This document shows positions 2,187-49,403 of a stretch of 49,637 nucleotides of DNA, in pieces (position 1 is the first letter of the stretch; each line of letters opens with the position of its first letter). This DNA is from a virus (Duplodnaviria > Caudoviricetes). Under the pieces are notes generated by a model. The model was given only the letters and a program-made list of their open reading frames with translations. It was not told the DNA's origin and searched no databases. The stretch spans positions 1 through 49,637 of IMG/VR virus record IMGVR_UViG_3300043173_000413; one strand, given 5' to 3'. A program made the position numbers and the translations under genes.

Positions 2187-4861
2187 TTATTACACCCCGT
2201 GATTATCAACAATATGCGATCGATTCCGTTATAAATTACTTCTCCGAAGGTAATGTGGGCAATCCGATAATAGCAATGCCGACAGGGTGCCACGCGAAAG
2301 GTCATATGATACTGATGTTTGACGGTTCACTGAAGGCGGTTGAAACCGTTATCCTTGGCGACTTGCTAATGGGGCCGGATAGTCTCCCACGAACAGTCCT
2401 TTCGTTAGCAAGAGGTCGGCAGGAGATGCGCCTGATAACTCCCGTTAAAGGTGAATCTTTCATAGTTAATATTGACCATAAACTGAATGTTAAAAAAGTG
2501 AATGAAGGAGGGACTTTCCTCTGCCGACAACAACGGAACGAAACAATAACAGTTAGGGATTTTGAAGACGGAACGAAATGGTATAGACATTTACGGAAAC
2601 TACGACGGGTCGAGGTTTCTTTTTCTGAAAAGTCGCAGCCATTAGACTCTTATTTTGTCGGCTTGATGTTAGGTGACGGATCGTTAGCGCGGGGAGTTGT
2701 TAATTTTACTGGCTCTGAAAAAGAAACTTTATCGGCTATTAAATCTGAAGCTTTTCGGTTTGGCTGCACGGTAACTGAATCGGCCAAAAACAATAATCCT
2801 GTTACTAAAAATCTTCGGGTTGTTGACCCTTGTGCTAATCGGTCGACTCCAAATAAAATAACAAAAATATACAGAAATTTAGAATTAATGGGAACAAATT
2901 CTTACACAGTTTTCGTTCCAGATGTTTATAAATTAAGCAGCACAACACAACGCATGGAGGTGTTAGCCGGCTTATTAGATTCTGACGGATATTACGATAA
3001 AAAAGGAAACGTCTATGAGCACTCCACCGTCGGTAAGCAATTAGGCGACGACGTGCGGTTCATGGCACGGAGTTTAGGTTTAGCCGCTTATACTTGTGTA
3101 TGTGACGCCAAACTAAATAGTAGGGTGATAAGTAAAGTTTACCGCACCGTAATTAGTGGCGACATTGACAGAATACCTGTCAGGACACCCTACAAAAAAG
3201 CAAAAAAGCGATCGCAGATTAAAGACGTGCTTTGCACAGGTTTCAGCGTTGAAGTTTTACCAGTTGACGATTATTACGGATTTACACTTAACGGGGATCA
3301 TTTATATTTAGATGAAAATTTCATCGTCCATCACAATACCGGTAAATCGATTATTATAGGCGGTTTAATTCAACAAGTTTTGCAGAAATGGCCAAATCAA
3401 AGGTTTCTTATGCTCACTCATGTTAAAGAACTTATTGAGCAAAATCACCAACGACTTCTTGACATGTGGCCCACTGCACCCGTTGGCATTTACAGCGCCG
3501 GATTAAGAAGAAAAGATATAGCACAACCCATCGTTTTCGGCGGGTGCGGTTCAATAGTAAATAATATCGAAGCGTTCGGTCACAGGGATCTTGTTATAGT
3601 GGACGAATGCCATTTAATCTCACCGAAAGCAAATACTACTTATCAGAAGATAATCGACGGCCTAAAAGTCGCAAATCCCCACATTAAAGTAATCGGTTTG
3701 ACTGCTACACCTTACCGGTTGGGACAAGGGCTTTTGACCGACGGCGGCCTTTTCACTGACGTATGCTGTGATGCTTGCGGGGTCGATGAATTTAATTGGT
3801 TTATTGAGCAAGGTCACTTAGCACCGCTTATTCCGAAACCGACATTGACGGAATATGATATTGAAAAGGTTGGAATTCAAAACGGCGACTTTAAAAAGGC
3901 TGAACTTGAACAGGCAGTTAATGAGGATAAATTGACTTTTAAAATCCTCGAAGAAATGGTTGAGGCTGGTTATGATAGGAAGTCATGGTTAATTTTTGCT
4001 TCAGGGATAAAACATACCGAAAGAGTTGCTGAAGCACTCGCTTATTATGGAATAACCGCATCAACTATACATTCTAAAATCGAAGCATCTTGCAAAGGAT
4101 GGAGCGTAGCGAGGGAAAGATTGTACCGCATTGAAGCATTCAAGAACCGGGAATTTCGAGCGTTGGTTAATATGAACGTACTTACGACCGGCTTTGATCA
4201 CGGACCTATTGATTTGATCGGAAGCTTACGCCCTACAGTTTCCCCAGGGTTACACGTTCAAATGTTAGGAAGAGGTACGCGACCTTGTGAAGGGAAAGAG
4301 AACTGTCTGGTGTTAGATTTTGCCGGTAACGTAAAACGATTGGGTCCGATCAATGACCCTGTTCTACCGAAGAAGAAAGGAAAGACGCCCGGTGAAGCTC
4401 CTATTCGCATCTGTCCACAACCACACTGCGGGGTTTATAACCATGCTTCGGCTCGAATCTGTTTCAATTGCGGCTTCGAATTTCCTATAAAAGAAAAACT
4501 CACTAAAGAAGCCGGTACTGCTGAGATAATAAAAAGTAACAAAAAAGCACCTGAACCAATGAAGGTTAAAGTTTTCACGGTCAGCAAGGCGATTTACAAA
4601 AAACACCATAAAGCAGGTTCGAAACCCTCGTTGCAAGTCACATACTTTAGTTCAGGAGGAACATTTAAAGAGTTTGTTTGTCTGGAACATAAAGGTTACG
4701 CTCGAACAATGGCGATAAACTGGTGGAAGTCGCGGCATAACACACACGCGCCGTTGACAATAGATCAAAGTTTAGATATAGTTAGTTTTCTTAAAGTACC
4801 TGCATCAATTAGAATTTGGGTTAATAAAAAATATCCGGAGATAATGAGTTATGAATGGTAG
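2183..4861 (+). CDS. SF2 DEAD/DEAH-like (RadD/SSL2-type) helicase containing an intein
   Basis: PRDYQ Q-motif, Walker A PTG/TGKS split by the intein, DECH, TATP, TTGFD, QMLGRGTR, C-terminal Zn ribbon CPQPHC..CFNC. Confidence 0.92.
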   Translation: MIITPRDYQQYAIDSVINYFSEGNVGNPIIAMPTGCHAKGHMILMFDGSLKAVETVILGDLLMGPDSLPRTVLSLARGRQEMRLITPVKGESFIVNIDHKLNVKKVNEGGTFLCRQQRNETITVRDFEDGTKWYRHLRKLRRVEVSFSEKSQPLDSYFVGLMLGDGSLARGVVNFTGSEKETLSAIKSEAFRFGCTVTESAKNNNPVTKNLRVVDPCANRSTPNKITKIYRNLELMGTNSYTVFVPDVYKLSSTTQRMEVLAGLLDSDGYYDKKGNVYEHSTVGKQLGDDVRFMARSLGLAAYTCVCDAKLNSRVISKVYRTVISGDIDRIPVRTPYKKAKKRSQIKDVLCTGFSVEVLPVDDYYGFTLNGDHLYLDENFIVHHNTGKSIIIGGLIQQVLQKWPNQRFLMLTHVKELIEQNHQRLLDMWPTAPVGIYSAGLRRKDIAQPIVFGGCGSIVNNIEAFGHRDLVIVDECHLISPKANTTYQKIIDGLKVANPHIKVIGLTATPYRLGQGLLTDGGLFTDVCCDACGVDEFNWFIEQGHLAPLIPKPTLTEYDIEKVGIQNGDFKKAELEQAVNEDKLTFKILEEMVEAGYDRKSWLIFASGIKHTERVAEALAYYGITASTIHSKIEASCKGWSVARERLYRIEAFKNREFRALVNMNVLTTGFDHGPIDLIGSLRPTVSPGLHVQMLGRGTRPCEGKENCLVLDFAGNVKRLGPINDPVLPKKKGKTPGEAPIRICPQPHCGVYNHASARICFNCGFEFPIKEKLTKEAGTAEIIKSNKKAPEPMKVKVFTVSKAIYKKHHKAGSKPSLQVTYFSSGGTFKEFVCLEHKGYARTMAINWWKSRHNTHAPLTIDQSLDIVSFLKVPASIRIWVNKKYPEIMSYEW
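2288..3337 (+). mobile_element. Intein (350 aa) with LAGLIDADG homing endonuclease, inserted in the helicase Walker A motif
   Basis: Begins CHAKG, ends HHN followed by Thr; block B VNIDH; motifs VGLMLGDGS and LAGLLDSDG; removal restores MPTGTGKS. Confidence 0.93.
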
Positions 4862-5381: not shown

Positions 5382-6328
5382 AAACGTTAAAGGGTGCTTT
5401 AGAGTTCGTTCTCATCGCCCAGGGGAAAGGTGATAGAGAATTCCATAAGCATTGCCGCATTGAAAACGGAACGGTATCAGCTACTGACGGTATCGTTTCC
5501 GCAGGATGCCGAATTGAGGAAGATTTGTATTGCAAACCTAATACCGAACTTTTACTTGCTGCGCTTTCTAAATGTAAAAATGAAGTTAACTTTACCCAAG
5601 TTAGTGACTCAACTCTATCAATTAAAAGTGGCAGATTTAAGGCTTCAATCCCATGTTTCGAGCTTGATCTGCCCGAAATTGCTCCCGATGGTCCGTGCGT
5701 TACTGAAGTAAATAAAAATTTGTTGAAGAGTATTTCCAAACTTGTTTCAATAGCCGATAAAAGCCAGAATGAAAACTACAAGTCAGTGTTTATAAAAGGA
5801 GGATCTGTTTTCGCTACCGATGGGCGGCTTTTAGTTGAGATATGGCACGGTGGAGCATTTGATCAAAGATCAATCCCTATTGATTCCTGTAAAAGGCTTC
5901 TTAAAATAAAAGGCGATTTGTCATCAGTAGCATCGTCCGATGATTCTAACACATTTTACTTCACCGACGATTCATGGTTTAAGACTCCACTCGCTTCATC
6001 AGAATTCCCACATATCGACGAACTCTTAAATATTGAAACTTCCCCGACACCTTTGACTAAAGAAGTGATTGAAGGTTTCCGTTCAGTTGCTCCATTTTGT
6101 GAAACGTTTATAAAATTTGAAACCAATTTAATATCTTCAATCGGCCCAAATACTTCAGGCGAAAGTCAATATGAAATAGATACACCGTCTAACAATTGCT
6201 GTTTTTCAGCTGTTCTTTTTTCTTCAATAATGGGCGATATTAAAACGATTGATTTTAACACAAACGAAACTTTGATATATTTTTTTGGCGATAATATGCG
6301 CGGGGCTTTAGCGAAAGGGCGGGAATAA
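5378..6328 (+). CDS. DNA polymerase sliding clamp (beta-subunit-like)
   Basis: Repeated ATDG motifs (VSATDG, VFATDG), FP motif, ~316 aa, adjacent to the polymerase; ATG overlaps the upstream stop. Confidence 0.75.
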   Translation: MKTLKGALEFVLIAQGKGDREFHKHCRIENGTVSATDGIVSAGCRIEEDLYCKPNTELLLAALSKCKNEVNFTQVSDSTLSIKSGRFKASIPCFELDLPEIAPDGPCVTEVNKNLLKSISKLVSIADKSQNENYKSVFIKGGSVFATDGRLLVEIWHGGAFDQRSIPIDSCKRLLKIKGDLSSVASSDDSNTFYFTDDSWFKTPLASSEFPHIDELLNIETSPTPLTKEVIEGFRSVAPFCETFIKFETNLISSIGPNTSGESQYEIDTPSNNCCFSAVLFSSIMGDIKTIDFNTNETLIYFFGDNMRGALAKGRE

Positions 6329-6330
6329 TA

Positions 6331-6401
6331 ATATTGACAAATATATTGACAAACTAATATTATCGTGAGATAAAGGTTTCGATACTAACATTTAAAGGAG
6401 G
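6331..6401 (+). promoter_or_regulatory. Tandem-TTGACA promoter cassette and RBS
   Basis: TTGACAAA at 6334 and 6346, then CTAACATTTAAAGGAGG. Confidence 0.65.
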
Positions 6402-9880: not shown

Positions 9881-9885
9881 CAGTA

Positions 9886-9965
9886 ATGTTGACAAACTCG
9901 TTGACAAACTAATTAAACAGTGCGATAAAGAACTTGAAACTAACATTTAACGAAAGGAAAACAAA
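9886..9965 (+). promoter_or_regulatory. Tandem-TTGACA promoter cassette
   Basis: TTGACAAA at 9889 and 9901; downstream CTAACATTTAACGAAAGGA leader. Confidence 0.7.
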
Positions 9966-10530: not shown

Positions 10531-10974
10531 ATGAAAGACTATTTAAAACCTACCAGATCACGCGGGGCTTTAATCGAAAAATGTTACAAAGTCATAAATT
10601 TCGCGTTAAGTCGAAACACCTTCACGGCAAAGGATATTCAAGACCATCTTCAATGTTCAAAGCAAACAGCACAGAAGCACATTGAAGCAATGAGCTTATA
10701 TTTTGAGCTTTCTGAAGATCCTGAAACCGGCAGGAATGGACAAATTACTTACCTAATGATTATTGATTGGGAAAAGAAAGATGAAAGGAAACCCGGAAAC
10801 AGATTAAAATATCCATTTGATAAATTGGCTATCGGGGGGTTTGAGTTATATAATAAAAAGTGCATATCTGTTAATGCTTTACGATGTGCTGCTATAAGAT
10901 ACGGCGTAAGGCACGATAAACGATTCGGGGTTTACACATATAGTGAAGTTTACAAGGTGGTAAGGTTACGTTAA
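10531..10974 (+). CDS. Putative DNA-binding protein: N-terminal wHTH plus C-terminal KYPF domain
   Basis: FTAKDIQDHLQCSKQTAQKHI HTH-like segment; KYPFDKLAIGG...VVR C-terminal domain. Confidence 0.65.
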   Translation: MKDYLKPTRSRGALIEKCYKVINFALSRNTFTAKDIQDHLQCSKQTAQKHIEAMSLYFELSEDPETGRNGQITYLMIIDWEKKDERKPGNRLKYPFDKLAIGGFELYNKKCISVNALRCAAIRYGVRHDKRFGVYTYSEVYKVVRLR

Positions 10975-11225: not shown

Positions 11226-11459
11226 ATGAGTGATGTATTTAAAAGTACCGAAAAAGTTAAACTGTCGTCTAAATACACAGGCCGCCCCGCGATCTATAAT
11301 TTTAAAGAACTTAAAATCGGCGAATCATTAAGACTTGATAAAAATAGTGTAAAGGCGTCAAGATTGCGAAGTGCCGCGAGTCACTATGGAAAACGGCATG
11401 GAAAACAGTTTAGTGTCGTGACCCATGACGAGTTTTACGAAGTTGCAAGGGTTGATTAA
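11226..11459 (+). CDS. Small KYPF-like domain protein (paralog of the 10531 C-terminus)
   Basis: YNFKELKIGES...LRSAASHYGKRHGKQFSV...YEVARV. Confidence 0.7.
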   Translation: MSDVFKSTEKVKLSSKYTGRPAIYNFKELKIGESLRLDKNSVKASRLRSAASHYGKRHGKQFSVVTHDEFYEVARVD

Positions 11460-11541: not shown

Positions 11542-11965
<424 letters not shown>

Positions 11966-12177: not shown

Positions 12178-13200
12178 ATGTATCCGGAAAAACAGTCTTT
12201 CAAAAGGTCGCATGTTATTGTAGATACACCCACATACGCGTTCCATAAGTTTCATGACGATAATGCTTCCGGCGCTCCCATTTTCGTTGTCGGACCCCAC
12301 GCAGGTAGGCACGTCAACATCATTCAGCGGCTCGTTGATACTTGCGTAGCAGAGGGGCGGCCCGTGTACTCCTACGAGCTGAAGAGTGCGAACGACGAGA
12401 ACAAAAGCACAACCATCGAAGACCTTGTACAAATTCTTTACGATTGCGTTACTCTCATCGGCGAGCCTGTTGACCTTATCGGGGTATGCCAAGGGGCGTG
12501 GCTTGGCGGCCTCTTCGCCGCAAGGTTTCCTGATCTGGTTACAAAGTACGCCAATATCGTCGGCCCGATCAATACCCGCACCGGGCAGGATAATGCCATC
12601 GAAAAATATATGAAACATCCGGGCATTGTCGAATATCATCAGAAGAAATTCGATGCCAACGGTGGCATCCAGAAGGGGGATGATCAATGGTTCGCATTCA
12701 GCATGCTGGACCCTTGGGAAACTTATTTAGGCAGGTTCTTTACTCAACAGCAGAACCTTTTCTTCGGCCTCTTCACTGATAAGAGCAAAGCGATTGAGAA
12801 GTGGGAGCATAACAATAGCTGGCACGATGACCAGCAGGATCTCGGCGCGTGGTTCATGGAAGTGATGAAGTGGCATTTCAAGGACAATAGGATATATGAA
12901 GGTACATTCCCCAAGATTCTTGGGGAGGATGTGAACTTCAAGAACATAACCTGCCCTGTCTTCCTCTTCGCGGGAGGTACGGATAATATCACAAGTACCC
13001 GTCAAGTTTTGGACATGGCAAATATTGTGGGATCAACGGAAATACATAGTGTAATATTCGAGAAGGATGGTCACACAAACGCTTTCAATCGTGAAAAATC
13101 ACTCAAAATTTTCAGAAAAATGTTTTTCGAAAATAAAACCTTTGAAGTTGCCACGGATGAAACGGAAAGGGAGATGGAAGAGGCGACGGCAACAGCTTAA
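12178..13200 (+). CDS. Alpha/beta hydrolase of the PHA depolymerase / PhaC / DUF3141-like group
   Basis: Lipase-box variant GVCQG (Cys nucleophile), PHAGRH oxyanion region, GPI.T, I.CPVFL.AG..DNIT (Asp), GH (His). Confidence 0.8.
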   Translation: MYPEKQSFKRSHVIVDTPTYAFHKFHDDNASGAPIFVVGPHAGRHVNIIQRLVDTCVAEGRPVYSYELKSANDENKSTTIEDLVQILYDCVTLIGEPVDLIGVCQGAWLGGLFAARFPDLVTKYANIVGPINTRTGQDNAIEKYMKHPGIVEYHQKKFDANGGIQKGDDQWFAFSMLDPWETYLGRFFTQQQNLFFGLFTDKSKAIEKWEHNNSWHDDQQDLGAWFMEVMKWHFKDNRIYEGTFPKILGEDVNFKNITCPVFLFAGGTDNITSTRQVLDMANIVGSTEIHSVIFEKDGHTNAFNREKSLKIFRKMFFENKTFEVATDETEREMEEATATA

Positions 13201-14217: not shown

Positions 14218-14247
14218 TTGACAAGTTGCTAAGCAACGTGCAATAAT
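14218..14247 (+). promoter_or_regulatory. Sigma70-like promoter with a palindromic operator-like spacer
   Basis: TTGACA-17/18 nt-(C)AATAAT; GTTGC-TAA-GCAAC at 14225-14237. Confidence 0.6.
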
Positions 14248-14290: not shown

Positions 14291-15001
14291 TTGAAAATGA
14301 CTTACAATGAATTGAAAACAGCAGCCGCCCTGCTCAATGCGGAATGCAAGGCGGGAATCAAGTGCGTGGGCATCAAGTCCGACGTTCTCGAAAGCGAGTT
14401 TGTTGAGGCGTCAAGATATTTTGCCGGGGAAGCTGAGAAAACCGGAACCCATCTTTCTGAAGAGCTTCAGGCGTTTTTCAGAGATATTACCGGCGAGGAA
14501 CTGCACAGTTGCGAAATTGACCCCCTGCCTACCCCTGCGGCTGCGGCTACTCCTGTTCCGACCTCTTCGGGCACAGGATACTCCAGGACGGTTACCGCAG
14601 AGACACCCTCTTCGGTCGTTGCTGCAAACGTTCCCGTACCCAAAAGAGCAGCCAAGCGTAAGGCTTCTGCCCGGCATCCGTTCGCTGATATGGAACTGGG
14701 ACATTCCTTTTTCGTCCCCTGCACCGAAGACCGCCCTGATCCTGCGAAATTCATGAAGAGTACAGTCGCAAGTGTTGTGCGTAAGCATTCGATCCCCGAC
14801 GCTTCAGGAGCCACAAGGACCGTTACCAGGGGGCCGAACAAAGGTAACACTGTGCCAGTCATGGTCCCCACAAAGGACTTTGTTTGTTGCGCAATCGATT
14901 CCGAACACCCTATCCCCGTTCCCGATGCCGATCCGATCACGGACGGTACACCATGGGGTTTCCCTGGCGTTGCTGGTGCCGGTATCTGGCGAATTGCTTA
15001 G
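14291..15001 (+). CDS. Two-domain protein with Pro/Thr/Ala linker and C-terminal KYPF-like (RHPF) domain
   Basis: GGAG RBS; RHPFADMELGHSFFVP...GIWRIA. Confidence 0.75.
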   Translation: MKMTYNELKTAAALLNAECKAGIKCVGIKSDVLESEFVEASRYFAGEAEKTGTHLSEELQAFFRDITGEELHSCEIDPLPTPAAAATPVPTSSGTGYSRTVTAETPSSVVAANVPVPKRAAKRKASARHPFADMELGHSFFVPCTEDRPDPAKFMKSTVASVVRKHSIPDASGATRTVTRGPNKGNTVPVMVPTKDFVCCAIDSEHPIPVPDADPITDGTPWGFPGVAGAGIWRIA

Positions 15002-15514
15002 GTTTCTCCGTTCCTGAGCTGTAACGTTCGCCGCCATTCGGCATCCTGCCCGGCCCTGCAAAACCCTTACTGGGAATTGTAGTACGATCGGGCAAGATGT
15101 CGAATCTAAAAACATCAATCCTTCTCACGGGCCGTTGTTAACCGGCACAAACCAAATCAGCTTGGTGGTTAATGACGATCCGAAAGAAGGATTGATTGAA
15201 ATTGGAGGTAATTTGTTATTCTTCATAATTCTGTCTTATGAACATTGGTGGCCTGTTATTAAGTTTATCAGAAACCCAATCTTCAAACGAACGGAAAACA
15301 TCAACCTGCATCGCTTTGCGCCGGAAGTCCACGGTAAACCCGGAAACCGCACCGTCGAGGCCGGTGTATGGAATCATGGAATGATAAGCCCGGCAAAATT
15401 CAGAAACCGCCAATCTGTGGGGATTAGTATGGATCTGATTTAAAAATCATTGCATAAAAACCCGTACTTCAAAAACCCGCCTAACGCAACGAGCGTCAAG
15501 CGGGTTTTTATTTT
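15002..15514 (+). ncRNA. Candidate large structured non-coding RNA (~500 nt)
   Basis: Many nested long helices, more G-U than C-A appositions on the + strand, a long-range closing helix 15002-15013/15289-15299 and a terminal hairpin with T tract; no convincing ORF. Confidence 0.6.
15471..15514 (+). terminator. Terminator of the + strand arm
   Basis: AAAAACCCGC...GCGGGTTTTT followed by ATTTT. Confidence 0.75.
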
Positions 15515-15525
15515 GGAATAAATTG

Positions 15526-15562
15526 TAAAGCCCGGTTTCAGGAAATTGAAAACCGGGCTTTA
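15526..15562 (-). terminator. Hairpin at the convergence point; probable terminator of the late operon
   Basis: TAAAGCCCGGTTT...AAACCGGGCTTTA inverted repeat. Confidence 0.65.
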
Positions 15563-15672
15563 ATCATCCCCAAGGCGTTATTATTGGGATTTAACAATTT
15601 TTTGTAACAAAATTACATAGCGCAGCCTCCTTTCAGTTATAGTCCTATTTTCACCATAAATCCCTTCCCTTT

Positions 15673-16455
15673 TTATATAAATAAATCCGTGTATTCACAC
15701 CGAACAACGTTCTCATGGCCCGGTTCGGCCTCGTCAAGGCCCCAAATCCAGTCCTCCGACTGAGGCTCGCCCAAGCATGCGGCAAGGGTTCCGTCCTCGT
15801 TACGGTAAATAAAGAGGATTACCGCATGATGCTGAACAAGTTCGTCGGCCGCATTGTATCCTTTGAAGAAGCAGGTTTTTGCGGTAAGATTTCCTATCCC
15901 CTGTTCTGCCAACCACCCAACAGTGATAGAGCAGGAGTCGTCGCAGTCCCTCTCGTTGGGTATGTGCTTATACCTGTGAGACGGAGACGCTTTCAGTATC
16001 TCATAACACTGAGCCTTCGTTGGAACCAGATATGCTGAATCCGTGATTTCGATGTCGGCCAGTCCCAGGTAATCGTTTGAATACAAGAAGCCGGTTATCT
16101 GGGACTGGCTATATTCGATCGGTGCCGGGTCAAGGATGAGTTTCGGTTCCAGCAGTTCAAGGAAGTATTTTCCGCCAGCCGACCCCATGAGTGCCAGCCA
16201 TGTTTCGAGATCTTCGAGCATTGGGGATCCAGCATACTTTTCTGCGACCTCTGCGACCCGGTCAGGGTGCCATGGGCTTTTACCCCCTGACAACTCACGA
16301 TCACATAGCACATAGAAAAACGGCCACCCGTTGCCCTGTTTTGATTCCAGGTCGATCCTGAGCAACTCGTTTTTCTCTGCCTGTAGATTAGGAAACAGGA
16401 TCCCCATTGGATGGTAATACCCCTGAGCGGCCAAAGCTTCTTTTACTGTCATCAT
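15673..16455 (-). CDS. Putative papain/transglutaminase-like Cys protease (lectin MOA C-terminal-like)
   Basis: Y....RDCDD, HAV and EPQ motifs consistent with a Cys-His-Glu triad. Confidence 0.55.
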   Translation of the reverse strand: MMTVKEALAAQGYYHPMGILFPNLQAEKNELLRIDLESKQGNGWPFFYVLCDRELSGGKSPWHPDRVAEVAEKYAGSPMLEDLETWLALMGSAGGKYFLELLEPKLILDPAPIEYSQSQITGFLYSNDYLGLADIEITDSAYLVPTKAQCYEILKASPSHRYKHIPNERDCDDSCSITVGWLAEQGIGNLTAKTCFFKGYNAADELVQHHAVILFIYRNEDGTLAACLGEPQSEDWIWGLDEAEPGHENVVRCEYTDLFI

Positions 16456-37726: not shown

Positions 37727-38239
37727 CTACACCCTATACATATTGTATTTATCCGATTCCCCGTTAACATCACGTAACCGCTCAATAAGCAATCGCCTAT
37801 CATATTTCGGTGTCGCATCGGGCTTGCGCCCCATCTTATCCCATCGGCAAAGCTTCACAAGATCAGCGAACCATTCATTCCCTGACAGCTCGTTCACCTT
37901 AGATAGTTTTTTCATATCGCCCAAGGCGTAATTCCAGAACCTCATATGGTTACCAACAAGCCATAGAGTTTTCGGGCTTACGTGATTCTTCAGCAGATCA
38001 ACTGAATATTTCTCGTGACCGAGTTTTGATATCTGCTTTCCGGCATCGTGAAGCATTGCGGCAACGATCAAATCAATGTCATCAGTTTCTCGAAGGGCGC
38101 ATTTTAACGTCTGGAGAGAATGATTGAAAACATCACCTTCGGGATGCCATTCAGGATGCTGCTCAACTCCTCTGCACCTTTCTAATATATTGAACAAGGG
38201 AGAGGAATTGGATATTTTTGTGAAATTATAGAACTTCAT
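37727..38239 (-). CDS. HD-domain phosphohydrolase (similar to the HD domain of multifunctional CCA enzymes)
   Basis: Q.P.WHPEGDVFNH, AAMLHDAGK, GHE, HM, D..GR. Confidence 0.85.
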   Translation of the reverse strand: MKFYNFTKISNSSPLFNILERCRGVEQHPEWHPEGDVFNHSLQTLKCALRETDDIDLIVAAMLHDAGKQISKLGHEKYSVDLLKNHVSPKTLWLVGNHMRFWNYALGDMKKLSKVNELSGNEWFADLVKLCRWDKMGRKPDATPKYDRRLLIERLRDVNGESDKYNMYRV

Positions 38240-39161
38240 TCGTCACAACCCCCACCAAAAAATTCTCCCAGAATTCAGCATTCACTTTATCGGGGAGTGT
38301 GCTTTTTACGGACAAATCTTCAACCTCGTCCATTAAATTCTCAAGGGTCGGGGCGGCATCGGTTAGATAATCAACCTTGCCACATTTAACAGCTGTAAGA
38401 TATTCACAATCTTTCAGTGGGAAGGTGATGGTGTTGTCGATCAATATTTCTCTGACTTGATATGCGGCCCGCAAAGCATGAGAAACAGCTTTCCAGTCGA
38501 TACCCTTGTTCTGCTCGGCCAGCTTTGCGCGGGCTCCATAGCCCTCTATGAATTTATTCAAAATTCCTGTGGCATAGAAAACGGTTATTGTTGACTGAAG
38601 GGTCCTTCCGCATACCTGATATTGCTTGACCAGCCCGGCGTCAGGCAGGTTGTGAAGGTGTTCACCCGCAGGGAGATCTGCCCACAATTTAGCAAGTCGA
38701 GTTTCTGGCGAGTATCCGTCAAGGACCTTGACAACGGCTTTTGCGGCATGGAGCCTACTTCCTCGAATTCCATATTTCGAAGCCTGACGTCTTGCGTATC
38801 CGATAAAAGATTTCAGATTCTTGGTATAGAATAGCTCCCGGTTGGCAACGATAGAATCCCAAACCGGAGAACCGGAGAGAATGAATTCGGATGGAGCGTG
38901 GAGCATATCAAATGCAACTGTTTGCCCCTCAATTGCGAGTTTCATGAAATGATGCAGGCTAAACAATTCAGTATCAACATCGTCTGCTCCGTTTTTCGAA
39001 AAATGATCCCCCGTGGAATGATTGATACTTTTCGGGATATTGCCGAGAATAATATCCCGTCTGCTCGGGAGGAAAACCCCCTTGAAGTCGCGATCAGAAT
39101 CCGGTGTACTTGTCCCATAAAGATGCGAACCGAATAGTATCTTCACAACGGTTGTTTTCAT
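38226..39161 (-). CDS. Pol-beta superfamily nucleotidyltransferase (T4 NrdC.11/RlaP-like)
   Basis: GSHLYG..TPDSDRDFKGVF, GYA..QA.KY, DWKA.SHA.R, LP motifs; AAGGAGG RBS. Confidence 0.85.
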   Translation of the reverse strand: MKTTVVKILFGSHLYGTSTPDSDRDFKGVFLPSRRDIILGNIPKSINHSTGDHFSKNGADDVDTELFSLHHFMKLAIEGQTVAFDMLHAPSEFILSGSPVWDSIVANRELFYTKNLKSFIGYARRQASKYGIRGSRLHAAKAVVKVLDGYSPETRLAKLWADLPAGEHLHNLPDAGLVKQYQVCGRTLQSTITVFYATGILNKFIEGYGARAKLAEQNKGIDWKAVSHALRAAYQVREILIDNTITFPLKDCEYLTAVKCGKVDYLTDAAPTLENLMDEVEDLSVKSTLPDKVNAEFWENFLVGVVTNEVL

Positions 39162-40406: not shown

Positions 40407-40577
40407 TAAGATCTCCCTTATCGGTTGATGTTATAGTTTTAGCGAAAGATACAGGCAACTCAATCGTCGCCTGTATCTTTCTAAAAAACCATAACGGTAA
40501 ACGAGGTTGGTTAAAAAGCCGGGTTATCATGCCAAGGCTATATTACCTCGTTAATATTTCATAAGCGGCCCTCCTTT

Positions 40578-41635: not shown

Positions 41636-41707
41636 CCCTTTTCGTTTCGGTTATGTTAAACACAACTTACATCGGATAGCTTTATTTGTCAACAAGTTTA
41701 TCAATAT
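41636..41707 (-). promoter_or_regulatory. Tandem TTGA(T/C)AAA promoter cassette
   Basis: The - strand reads ATATTGATAAACTTGTTGACAAATAAAG...TAAGTT...TTTAACA...ACGAAAAGGGG. Confidence 0.7.
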
Positions 41708-42024
41708 CGTATAGTATGCCCACATTTACCATTATTAAAATCGAGAGGATAAACAACTTTATTAAAGCCGGTATGGGTAACTTTAAGCGCTATATCAAGT
41801 AAATCGTTAATTTTATTAATCTCATCCTCTAAAACTTCAAACGTCCGCTCATATTCAGCAAGCTGTTTTTTAAGATCTTTAATCTCAAGACTCAAAATGG
41901 TTATGCTATCCATTATGTAATTATCCTTTATCTTACAAGCCCCATACCCATCATCCACAGAGTCGTTGTTATTATGGACAAGGTCGTTGTTATTATCAGT
42001 GTCGCAGTCGTATTGTGTGTCCAT
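41701..42024 (-). CDS. Hypothetical protein with coiled coil
   Basis: ORF in the - strand cluster. Confidence 0.5.
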   Translation of the reverse strand: MDTQYDCDTDNNNDLVHNNNDSVDDGYGACKIKDNYIMDSITILSLEIKDLKKQLAEYERTFEVLEDEINKINDLLDIALKVTHTGFNKVVYPLDFNNGKCGHTIRY

Positions 42025-42295: not shown

Positions 42296-42847
42296 TTATT
42301 TAACCCTCCCGACTTCACATCGACCATCGTTATGAATTGTCATTATGAACTTTCGATTGAGAGATTTACCGAAACGACTACATAAAACTGTAACGCTTCT
42401 TTTATTAAGGATTTCTGCCGGAATTATAAATGATTCGCCCACATTTAACTTTGTGAAAGGATATTTTGTTTTAGGCGCCTTATCCACGGCCTTATTCATT
42501 TCAATTAACGCTTCCGGTGAACACGGCCCGCACTGGTACATTTCCCCAACGTCAACATCCTCTTCAAGACCATCTGATATCATCCCTATTTCGTAAAGTC
42601 CTGGTGTCGTTTTGCTATGGTTAACAATAATATATGCCCCAGGCCCTTTGCGGTTCTGATAGGCGAGCGCATTATTCAACGAAACAACTTCAGGGCCAGT
42701 CGATGCGATGATACCGAAAGAGTATCCTACAGTTAACTTTTTAAAAGGATACTTCGAAGAGAGTTTACCTTCAGTCGCTTTTTCCCCTTTCATTTTCATA
42801 TCATCACTACTCGGCAAAACTTGCACATCATTATTGATTAAATTCAC
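42296..42847 (-). CDS. Protein with two tandem KYPF domains
   Basis: KYPFKKLTVGYSF and KYPFTKLNVGESF..VGRV. Confidence 0.75.
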   Translation of the reverse strand: MNLINNDVQVLPSSDDMKMKGEKATEGKLSSKYPFKKLTVGYSFGIIASTGPEVVSLNNALAYQNRKGPGAYIIVNHSKTTPGLYEIGMISDGLEEDVDVGEMYQCGPCSPEALIEMNKAVDKAPKTKYPFTKLNVGESFIIPAEILNKRSVTVLCSRFGKSLNRKFIMTIHNDGRCEVGRVK

Positions 42848-42864
42848 ATCATCACCCTTTTGCG

Positions 42865-43255
42865 TATTATTGAATTGATCAATTCACAACTAATCTCTAA
42901 GATATAATTAGTTGATCAATCACAAAATGTCAATTGATTTTAATGAATTAATTAATTCATTAGCCGAACAACATACCGGAGTGAGTTTGGAGTGAGTGTA
43001 AGTTGTTTATATCTATATATATATGTTAGTATGTTATTATATGTTATATATACAGAGAATAGTCTTTTTTAATGAATTGATCAATTCATTAGTTTTATCA
43101 ATTCATTAGTTTGTGTGTTTCTCTCTATATTAACATACCAACATTTTTCTCTCTAACCTATTGAATTTATTACAAATAATCGGTATGATTAGCAACATAC
43201 AAACATCATACTTTTCATAAGTGCTTGAAATCATTCACTTTTGTATAACATACAA
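42865..43255. other. AT-rich non-coding region with palindromes and short repeats; candidate replication origin or regulatory hub
   Basis: Perfect palindromes at 42871-42886, 42941-42962 and 43070-43091; AACATAC repeats in both orientations; TA tracts. Confidence 0.55.
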
Positions 43256-45360: not shown

Positions 45361-45437
45361 TTTGTTTTCCCTTTTCGTTAGTGTTAAATACAACTTAACT
45401 CTTTTTAATTAGTTTGTCAACAAGTTTGTCAATATTG
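45361..45437 (-). promoter_or_regulatory. Tandem-TTGACA promoter cassette
   Basis: The - strand reads AATATTGACAAACTTGTTGACAAACTAATTAAA...TAAGTT...TTTAACACTAACGAAAAGGGA. Confidence 0.72.
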
Positions 45438-45482
45438 TTAAACAAAAATTAAGGTGACGGTAAGTCACCTTATAATAAAACG

Positions 45483-48163: not shown

Positions 48164-48643
48164 ATGGTAGATGTAACCGAAGTAACACAAGAAGAGAAAG
48201 ATTCGCTTTTGTTAGCGCTTATTGAAGTTAGGAAGTTAAAAGATAACACAAACGATTTAATCAAAGCGGCAATCGAACCATATGCGAAAGATCTTTCGAA
48301 ATATGTAAGTCATGAAGCTACCCTTGTTGAAGAGATCTTAACAGTCTTTTACCCCGATCACGATTTGGAAGGGGTTCAAAAACAAGATCTTGGCAACGGA
48401 TGGTTTTTGAAAGCGACATTTGTAAAAAAGATCAAAATTGACGAAAAGAAAGTTGAAGGTGTTGTTGCCGAACTTTCAAACATGGATAGTGTAAAACCTG
48501 ACGATATTTTCCCTCAGGTTCGCAAATTTGCAAAACGGGGTTATACCGATTTGCACGATTCGGTAAAGATCATTGCTGATAAAGCTCTGATCGTCAAACC
48601 CGGTAATCATAGTATCGAAATCGTACCGCCAAAGGAGAGTTAA
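48164..48643 (+). CDS. Hypothetical protein (Gam/gp157-like position and helical N-terminus)
   Basis: AAGGAGG RBS; EG....LGNGW.LK and KPG motifs seen in phage recombination modules. Confidence 0.65.
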   Translation: MVDVTEVTQEEKDSLLLALIEVRKLKDNTNDLIKAAIEPYAKDLSKYVSHEATLVEEILTVFYPDHDLEGVQKQDLGNGWFLKATFVKKIKIDEKKVEGVVAELSNMDSVKPDDIFPQVRKFAKRGYTDLHDSVKIIADKALIVKPGNHSIEIVPPKES

Positions 48644-48644
48644 A

Positions 48645-48803
48645 ATGATTATAGACGATTTTACAAAAAATTCAGCATCCATCGAGTGGTCGGGGAGTCG
48701 CGCCAAGGCAGCACAGTTTGTGATCGAAATGGTGTACGCCAACTGCTACGACTGTTACAACTGTCTCGACTGTTACAACTGCCGCGACTGTCACAACATA
48801 TAG
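48645..48803 (+). CDS. 52-aa protein with (Cxx)6 repeat
   Basis: AAGGAG RBS; ...ANCYDCYNCLDCYNCRDCHNI*. Confidence 0.6.
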   Translation: MIIDDFTKNSASIEWSGSRAKAAQFVIEMVYANCYDCYNCLDCYNCRDCHNI

Positions 48804-48857
48804 CCCGCAATATGAAACGTACCATTGAAATCGTACCGCCAAAGGAGGCTTAACATC

Positions 48858-49130
48858 ATGATCAAAGTCACATTATACGCTCCAAAAAATAAAATCACAG
48901 CTCTCAAGATAGCCCTTGAAACTGAGAGTGCTAAGGTGCCGCCCGAACCCTTTAATGCTCCCCCTGCTCCTCCTCCCCCTCCCTTTACTCCTCCTGTTCC
49001 GGTTCCGGTTCCGTGCGGGGAAATAATGCTCGCAATAAGACCTGCCCCCGGTAAGGAATCTGAATTTTTAGAATTAGTTTTGAATTCAGATATATTTCGA
49101 GTCGATGATGTTAAGCTGAACCTCGAATAA
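48858..49130 (+). CDS. Pro-rich hypothetical protein, paralog of 49155-49403
   Basis: AAGGAGG RBS; KI.AL.IAL, poly-Pro linker, GKE.EFLE.VL.S. Confidence 0.7.
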   Translation: MIKVTLYAPKNKITALKIALETESAKVPPEPFNAPPAPPPPPFTPPVPVPVPCGEIMLAIRPAPGKESEFLELVLNSDIFRVDDVKLNLE

Positions 49131-49154
49131 TCGTACCACCAAAGGAGAGTTGAA

Positions 49155-49403
49155 ATGAAGATAGTTTTTCGAGACAACAGAAGTAAAATTGCAGCACTTG
49201 AAATTGCGCTCAAACATGCAATGGTGAAAGAACTGCCTCCAACCCCTCCCGCCACAACCGCCACAACCCCTCCCGCTCCTAACGGTGTGATCAGTTTTGG
49301 ATTAGCTGTTAAGTTAGGTAAAGAGTGCGAGTTTTTAGAATTCGTTTTGAAATCCGGGATCGTCTCAGTCATCGGACCTGAAATCAGCACAGACAAATCA
49401 TGA
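49155..49403 (+). CDS. Pro-rich hypothetical protein, paralog of 48858-49130
   Basis: Same motifs; AAGGAG RBS. Confidence 0.7.
   Translation: MKIVFRDNRSKIAALEIALKHAMVKELPPTPPATTATTPPAPNGVISFGLAVKLGKECEFLEFVLKSGIVSVIGPEISTDKS

Follow-up and report, generated by a model that had tools for sequence, protein, structure and literature searches.

The DNA analysed here, referred to below as the window, is a complete virus record of 49,637 bp with direct terminal repeats. Its DNA polymerase is nearest to those of Loki-like phages (47-48%), and its capsid protein resembles nothing cultured by more than about 31%. On the plus strand, a gene of the DUF7303 family is followed, from the first base after its stop codon, by about 460 non-coding bases that separate the stop from a predicted terminator, and the first 300 of these are predicted to form a branched RNA (Table 1). 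Its end is marked by a bidirectional terminator-like hairpin, at the point of convergence between the plus-strand genes and a minus-strand block of structural genes. The promoter located 79 nt upstream of the DUF7303 gene is the only strong one nearby on the plus strand. No tRNA genes were detected in the window genome with ARAGORN. The search of sequencing runs returned one DNA run (marine sediment) containing the window sequence, which may be its source, and listed no RNA run, a result with no bearing on expression.

Table 1. The DUF7303 transcription unit, the element downstream of the gene and the adjoining convergent region (window coordinates)
Feature	Position	Strand	Remarks
Sigma-70-type promoter, extended -10 (11/12)	14218..14247	+	likely start of the transcript with gene and RNA
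DUF7303 gene (PF23978, phrog_7597)	14297..15001	+	234 aa from ATG
Domain 1, a branched fold with P1 and P2 as closing helices	15002..15299	+	predicted
P1	15002-15013/15289-15299	+	closing helix of domain 1
P2	15015-15035/15247-15267	+	long, irregular; six G-U among 18 pairs
Arm (i), long irregular hairpin	15036..15105	+	z -5.8; pairing kept in related strain
Arm (ii), long hairpin	15114..15196	+	z -8.0; 5' strand diverged in related strain
Small 7-bp hairpin (iii)	15222..15242	+	weak support (p 0.30-0.45)
Repeat module 1: GAAACCGC-hairpin-GTATGGA	15343..15372	+	
Repeat module 2 with closing stem	15400..15438	+	flanks of module 1, different hairpin
Intrinsic terminator-like hairpin	15470..15512		A and U tracts on both sides; z -5.9 (+), -9.7 (-)
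Two more hairpins in the zone where plus and minus blocks converge	15526..15590		read from sequence
Convergent gene, last of the minus-strand structural block	15673..16455	-	4 relatives, 48-81% identity

Several features elsewhere in the genome were noted as well. An alpha/beta hydrolase encoded at 12178-13200 (plus strand) shows a weak likeness to the PHA synthase PhaC and to a depolymerase, which is unusual for a small phage. The long dinucleotide repeat at about 11580-11670, odd in a phage, yields Val-Cys runs in two shadow ORFs and is perhaps an assembly feature. A promoter-like motif with a doubled TTGACA on both strands recurs at 6329-6395, 9884-9950, 41645-41710 and 45373-45438 and is likely to be a shared phage promoter or operator. 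The AT-rich stretch at 42850-43250 carries three 20-nt palindromic repeats and is a candidate replication origin; at 48605-49162, a motif is present three times, each copy joined to the ribosome site of one of successive small genes; and a 39-nt inverted repeat with a 6-nt loop lies between small genes at 40421-40504 (window z -3.7).

The initial annotation had proposed that the region downstream of the DUF7303 gene is a large, highly structured non-coding RNA, possibly of a new class. This interpretation is partly supported. The non-coding, structured, plus-strand nature of the region and its lack of an Rfam family are borne out by the folding statistics, a broken ORF and pairing-preserving changes in a relative. 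The promoter scan found no plus-strand promoter inside the region. A more fitting description of the locus is that the 3' UTR of the DUF7303 gene contains a folded domain of 300 bases and a 100-base tail of repeat modules. ORF 15135-15443, which the initial annotation had named, appears to be non-coding: its start and frame are lost in the relative, it has neither a Shine-Dalgarno site nor a family match, and its codon score of -0.02 is shadow-like (training genes, -0.01 to 0.19).

For domain 1, the shuffling comparison that had been proposed gives a clear excess of folding. The segment 15002-15300 folds at -110 kcal/mol vs -71 for shuffles (z -7.7 on the plus strand and -5.2 on the minus strand; 40 shuffles), and both arms are significant on their own. 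When the plus strand of the whole genome was scanned in 248 windows of 200 bases, 15001-15200 came out on top (z -6.9, 100 shuffles), and the next two windows reached -4.5 and -4.1. The helices described earlier are present with few exceptions. P1 consists of 11 pairs with C15006 bulged; its inner seven pairs have p 0.60-0.72, and the outer four have a competing partner in the fold of the whole region. The stem 15036-15052/15089-15105 of arm (i), together with its extensions, was found as described (15 Watson-Crick pairs, one G-U and one mismatch), with core pairs at p 0.98-1.0 and the two outermost ones lower. Arm (ii) contains the perfect 11-bp stem 15114-15124/15186-15196 and the 15-position stem 15129-15143/15167-15181 (11 Watson-Crick pairs, three G-U, one mismatch), and the two small hairpins claimed for the domain are also there (p 0.3-0.6). 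The earlier description lacked P2, which continues P1 inward and adds 15 kcal/mol. The ATTGG/CCAAT pairing claimed around hairpin (iii) crosses this stronger helix (model energy -104.5 with P2 vs -88.9 with the claimed pairing) and is therefore excluded from a nested model that contains P2.

The only relative found for the element is a second, low-depth contig from the same sequencing run and sample as the window, and it is partly visible. This contig aligns to 14975-15167, 15343-15374 and 15375-15530, and the element is non-coding there; 154 letters stand in place of 15168-15342, and 65 letters are inserted directly behind module 1. Substitutions were compared by eye with the table of predicted pairs, 21 of the 25 in the first aligned piece being listed. 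Arm (i) accounts for eight of the listed substitutions: two lie in loops and six at paired or opposed positions, of which five retain or gain pairing. The changes at 15054, 15094 and 15097 convert Watson-Crick pairs to G-U, that at 15088 converts G-U to G-C, and that at 15095 turns a C.A mismatch into C-G; the change at 15072 opens the loop-closing pair. Positions 15006-15027 and 15036-15053 are identical. No two-sided compensatory change was found in the visible part of domain 1 in this one relative, and the changes in P2 (15033, 15035) and in the 5' strand of arm (ii) face partner strands outside the visible part. The terminator stem is more fully paired in the relative, where its internal loop closes (15483 with 15497, and 15499) and its outermost pair is lost.

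These substitutions bear on the question of which strand, and which nucleic acid, is folded. The initial annotation had argued for a plus-strand RNA from an excess of G-T over C-A appositions, but inside the single sequence this bias is slight (13 of 102 pairs on the plus strand vs 9 of 90 on the minus strand). With the terminator included, the minus strand folds better (z -5.85 vs -5.00), and the DNA folding energies of the two strands are nearly equal (-51.5 and -49.6). The good folding of both strands and the similar DNA energies would fit a DNA element (cruciforms, an origin or a packaging site), or else inverted duplications that survive as a neutral relic. This explanation is improbable, given that the changes in the relative produce G-U pairs on the plus strand and would leave A.C mismatches on the other, that the AT-rich repeat region is a better origin candidate, and that the terminase genes lie 20 kb away. 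The outcome of three G-U and no A.C changes, a comparison of two sequences that would come out this way by chance 1 time in 8, appears to favour a plus-strand RNA. The structural observations of the initial annotation are, as a whole, partly confirmed, and we consider it probable that the element is a functional structured RNA of the plus strand.

The second domain fared differently. The earlier proposal of a second structured domain (about 15307-15454) finds no support in a folding excess (15300-15460, z +0.6 and +0.4; +0.8 in a repeat calculation). What this stretch does contain is a pair of modules separated by 60 nt, in which identical flanks of 8 and 7 bases surround unlike hairpins; the modules share nothing beyond these flanks, and no other copy occurs in the genome. 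A bipartite repeat of this kind arose in 19 of 2000 shuffles, a statistic picked post hoc, after the motif had been seen; five of 106 genome windows pass the same test, four of them elsewhere in the genome. In the relative, module 1 has three differences in 32 bases, and module 2 gains one pair in its closing stem (15433), has an apparently disturbed apical stem (15423, 15425) and carries GGU in place of GGA. By eye, the loop of module 2 could also pair with 15461-15466, an interaction that is partly lost in the relative. The terminator claimed to follow is present, and this hairpin is likely to form the 3' end of the RNA.

The region around the modules is rich in GGA, with seven copies within 150 nt at about 15290-15435, in the top 1% of the genome, and one of them lies in a hairpin loop (15373-15385). 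This local enrichment could point to a sponge for CsrA comparable to CsrB or RsmZ, an idea that we regard as highly improbable: the model has the majority of the GGAs base-paired, the one in module 2 is lost in the relative, and domain 1 would be left unexplained.

Database searches returned no homolog of the RNA. Neither ROOL, GOLLD, OLE nor any other Rfam covariance model has a match at gathering score in the window, in line with the earlier impression that the region belongs to no known class; at E values up to 10, the best Rfam hit (28 bits, E 0.21) falls on the terminator hairpins. Rfam and ARAGORN revealed no tRNA- or tmRNA-like domain in the RNA. No homolog was found in phages and plasmids (blastn), in viral contigs (exact-pattern search) or in the collected DUF7303 loci (nhmmer and blastn), and a single-sequence covariance model run over 75 sources gave only self matches below E 0.9. 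Viral, metagenome and genome scans found no DNA of the close clade; six close DUF7303 proteins exist (55-82% identity). Homologs of the two flanking genes (P0003 and P0011) each come from a JGI contig 12,849 nt long, which suggests that a further phage may have the same arrangement. Among the candidates considered and rejected are 14 nt complementary to the sliding-clamp mRNA (5501-5514), a match expected about 0.17 times by chance (an estimate). Resemblances to RNase P RNA (over 10 bases) and to hammerhead, loop E and Y RNA motifs lack Rfam support and were likewise discarded. No reverse transcriptase, the test for a retron or DRT, was found among 52 ORFs scanned against PHROGs. The literature search found no paper naming DUF7303, phrog_7597 or PF23978, and one 12-base motif is absent from three supplements of the catalogue PMC10690425.

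The position of the element can be compared with the corresponding slot behind other DUF7303 genes. We gathered 112 distant DUF7303 loci and called terminators with a simple script, which succeeded in 101; in the other 11 none was called, in several because the locus ends. The distance from stop codon to terminator has a median of 61 nt in 75 distinct relatives vs 503 in the window: 63 of the 75 fall within 100 nt, eight at 101-200 and four beyond, one of the latter (L080) probably being a missed weak terminator. Of 34 relatives scanned, 19 have a promoter match of at least 10 of 12 positions 65-97 nt upstream of the ATG, a count that stands without a shuffle control. Most relatives inspected have one or two hairpins ahead of the terminator.

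Such hairpins are what would be expected of a cis-acting 3' UTR, which would protect or process the DUF7303 message through RNase III-type stems or blocks to exonucleases and buffer it against convergent transcription of the structural genes, with nothing acting in trans. The element indeed begins at the stop codon without a promoter of its own, it lies where the plus and minus gene blocks converge, and phage RNase III sites are about the size of its arms, 70-85 nt. Nevertheless, about 60 nt suffice in the relatives, a nested 300-nt domain with end-joining helices and modules exceeds what a stabiliser needs, and tRNAs occupy the slot elsewhere; a purely cis-acting role is, on balance, somewhat unlikely, though still a serious rival.

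The loaded slots are few and diverse. In Erwinia phage AH03 (MZ501266.1; L109:1764-1851), a tRNA-Ser starts 8 nt after the DUF7303 stop and is followed by the terminator. The IMG/VR contig L029, from the same phage as L072 and L073, has about 1,050 non-coding bases after the stop (2768-3830), with, in order, a long hairpin, a branched domain, a folded stretch ending in CCACCA, a tRNA-Gln (3311-3385), more structure and the terminator; its folded domain reaches z -3.6 over 541 nt, and no Rfam family other than tRNA was found in the region. In L096 (MTEU01004736.1), a branched RNA of 300 nt (2765-3100, z -6.2) occupies the same slot, with no Rfam or phage match and no relative returned. About 200 nt with several long hairpins separate the DUF7303 stop from the terminator in L071 (1222-1430). 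ARAGORN found a tRNA in one of 42 and one of 48 loci, in one and the same phage, and loading of the slot is therefore rare. Because tRNAs occupy it in two distantly related phages, the RNA of the window is itself likely to be a stable RNA cut from the message. L029 and L096 add two further undescribed RNAs, and the slot provides a simple rule for finding more.

The DUF7303 protein itself was considered as a partner of the RNA, either in a ribonucleoprotein or through an autoregulatory site. The two are likely co-transcribed, the N-terminal part of the protein has relatives only within the close, small clade that holds the RNA, and the genome encodes three paralogs with small domains related to the DUF7303 core (phrog_10287; 10531-10974, 11226-11459 and 42296-42847); an HTH is present in one of them, and another carries the domain twice. 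The model of the full-length protein is poor (pLDDT 53) and matches no fold; the C-domain is modelled confidently (pLDDT 90) and has no significant Foldseek match among solved structures; these models speak neither for nor against RNA binding by DUF7303. Given also that most DUF7303 genes have no large RNA behind them, such a partnership is very unlikely.

Taken together, the DUF7303 slot of this phage is likely to express a new orphan RNA, with expression, ends and function all predicted. Whether this RNA acts in trans as a stable RNA is, in our estimate, evenly balanced. Judging from the motifs, host RNA polymerase would start at the strong 14218 promoter and transcribe first the gene, then the RNA, up to the terminator near 15510. 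Domain 1 would then fold behind the stop codon with its ends joined by P1 and P2, as computed and, for one arm, backed by the relative, and host RNases could release it, as with the tRNAs in the same slot elsewhere. In the weakest step, the tail modules, with their constant flanks and variable hairpins and spacing, may serve as binding sites. Among possible jobs we prefer that of a decoy, for two reasons: the modular build of the tail, in which the flanks are retained, and the precedent of pseudo-ToxI, a phage RNA decoy that works through repeat expansion (PMC3475682). That the RNA is a decoy is nonetheless doubtful, and the full account, in which it is co-transcribed with DUF7303, cut out, kept stable and used in trans against a host RNA-binding protein or nuclease, is likewise a tentative one that may well fail. 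The lack of a large RNA in the slot of most relatives and the lack of a folding excess in domain 2 both speak against it.

An RlaP-family nucleotidyltransferase gene adjoins that of an HD-domain protein on the minus strand (37727-39161), and the two may form an RNA repair pair in a phage free of tRNAs. Damaged RNA ends are extended by RlaP through the addition of nucleotides (PMC12776372). The pair hints at conflict over RNA and does not tie such conflict to the element.

In a broader and rather unlikely version of the decoy account, the 3' end of the DUF7303 unit would be a plug-in cassette for stable RNAs in Loki- and PA73-like phages, and the RNA of the window would found a class of modular decoys. 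Lineages would then have loaded the slot with tRNAs or unrelated large folded RNAs, and the decoys would act alongside the RlaP-type RNA repair enzyme by disarming a host defence protein that binds RNA. To our knowledge, phages have few large structured RNAs, and a job is known for none of them. The setting is testable, since the promoter-gene-terminator unit is conserved in the cultured phages PA73, Loki and AH03 and the RNA could be moved into it.

Among the RNAs of the slot, the tRNA-Ser of AH03 resembles the window RNA in lying directly after the DUF7303 stop and before an intrinsic terminator, but the window RNA lacks the cloverleaf, the T-arm and the CCA end. The RNA of L096 likewise has two long arms and a small hairpin enclosed by a long, irregular helix, and the first 14 bases of that closing helix resemble window 15001-15014; nevertheless, the RNAs of L096 and L029 are not detectably homologous to that of the window, with no significant similarity by nhmmer or an unfiltered covariance model (best scores 5.6 and 8.2 bits, short fragments only). 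With pseudo-ToxI of PhiTE and type III antitoxins, the window RNA shares the nature of a phage non-coding RNA with repeated modules (PMC3475682), and the 65 extra bases in the relative lie at a module boundary. It differs in having only two modules with unlike hairpins rather than near-identical tandem repeats, no supported pseudoknot, no Rfam antitoxin match, and a large domain that precedes the modules.

The closest comparison in kind is with ROOL and GOLLD, large ornate phage RNAs that are associated with tRNAs and self-assemble (PMC12286853). Like them, the window RNA is phage-encoded, several hundred bases long, multi-branched and of unknown function, and it is associated with a tRNA expression site, in its case only through relatives that have a tRNA in the same slot. 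A scaffold or cage of their kind, built of RNA alone and with arms and modules making contacts between copies, would suit its size, phage origin and long coaxial arms, and the CC/AUGG half of the module may resemble one side of the 11-nt tetraloop receptor. We consider a scaffold quite unlikely, though still a rival account, in view of the missing Rfam match, a genome free of tRNAs, the instability of domain 2 alone, and the failure to find by eye a convincing GNRA loop or loop-loop complement. The window RNA further differs from ROOL and GOLLD in being shorter, in lying in the 3' UTR of a protein gene without a promoter of its own or a tRNA island in its genome, and in being confined to a rare clade. 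At most, it works like these orphan large phage RNAs; it is a member of none of their families, and the instance appears to be new.
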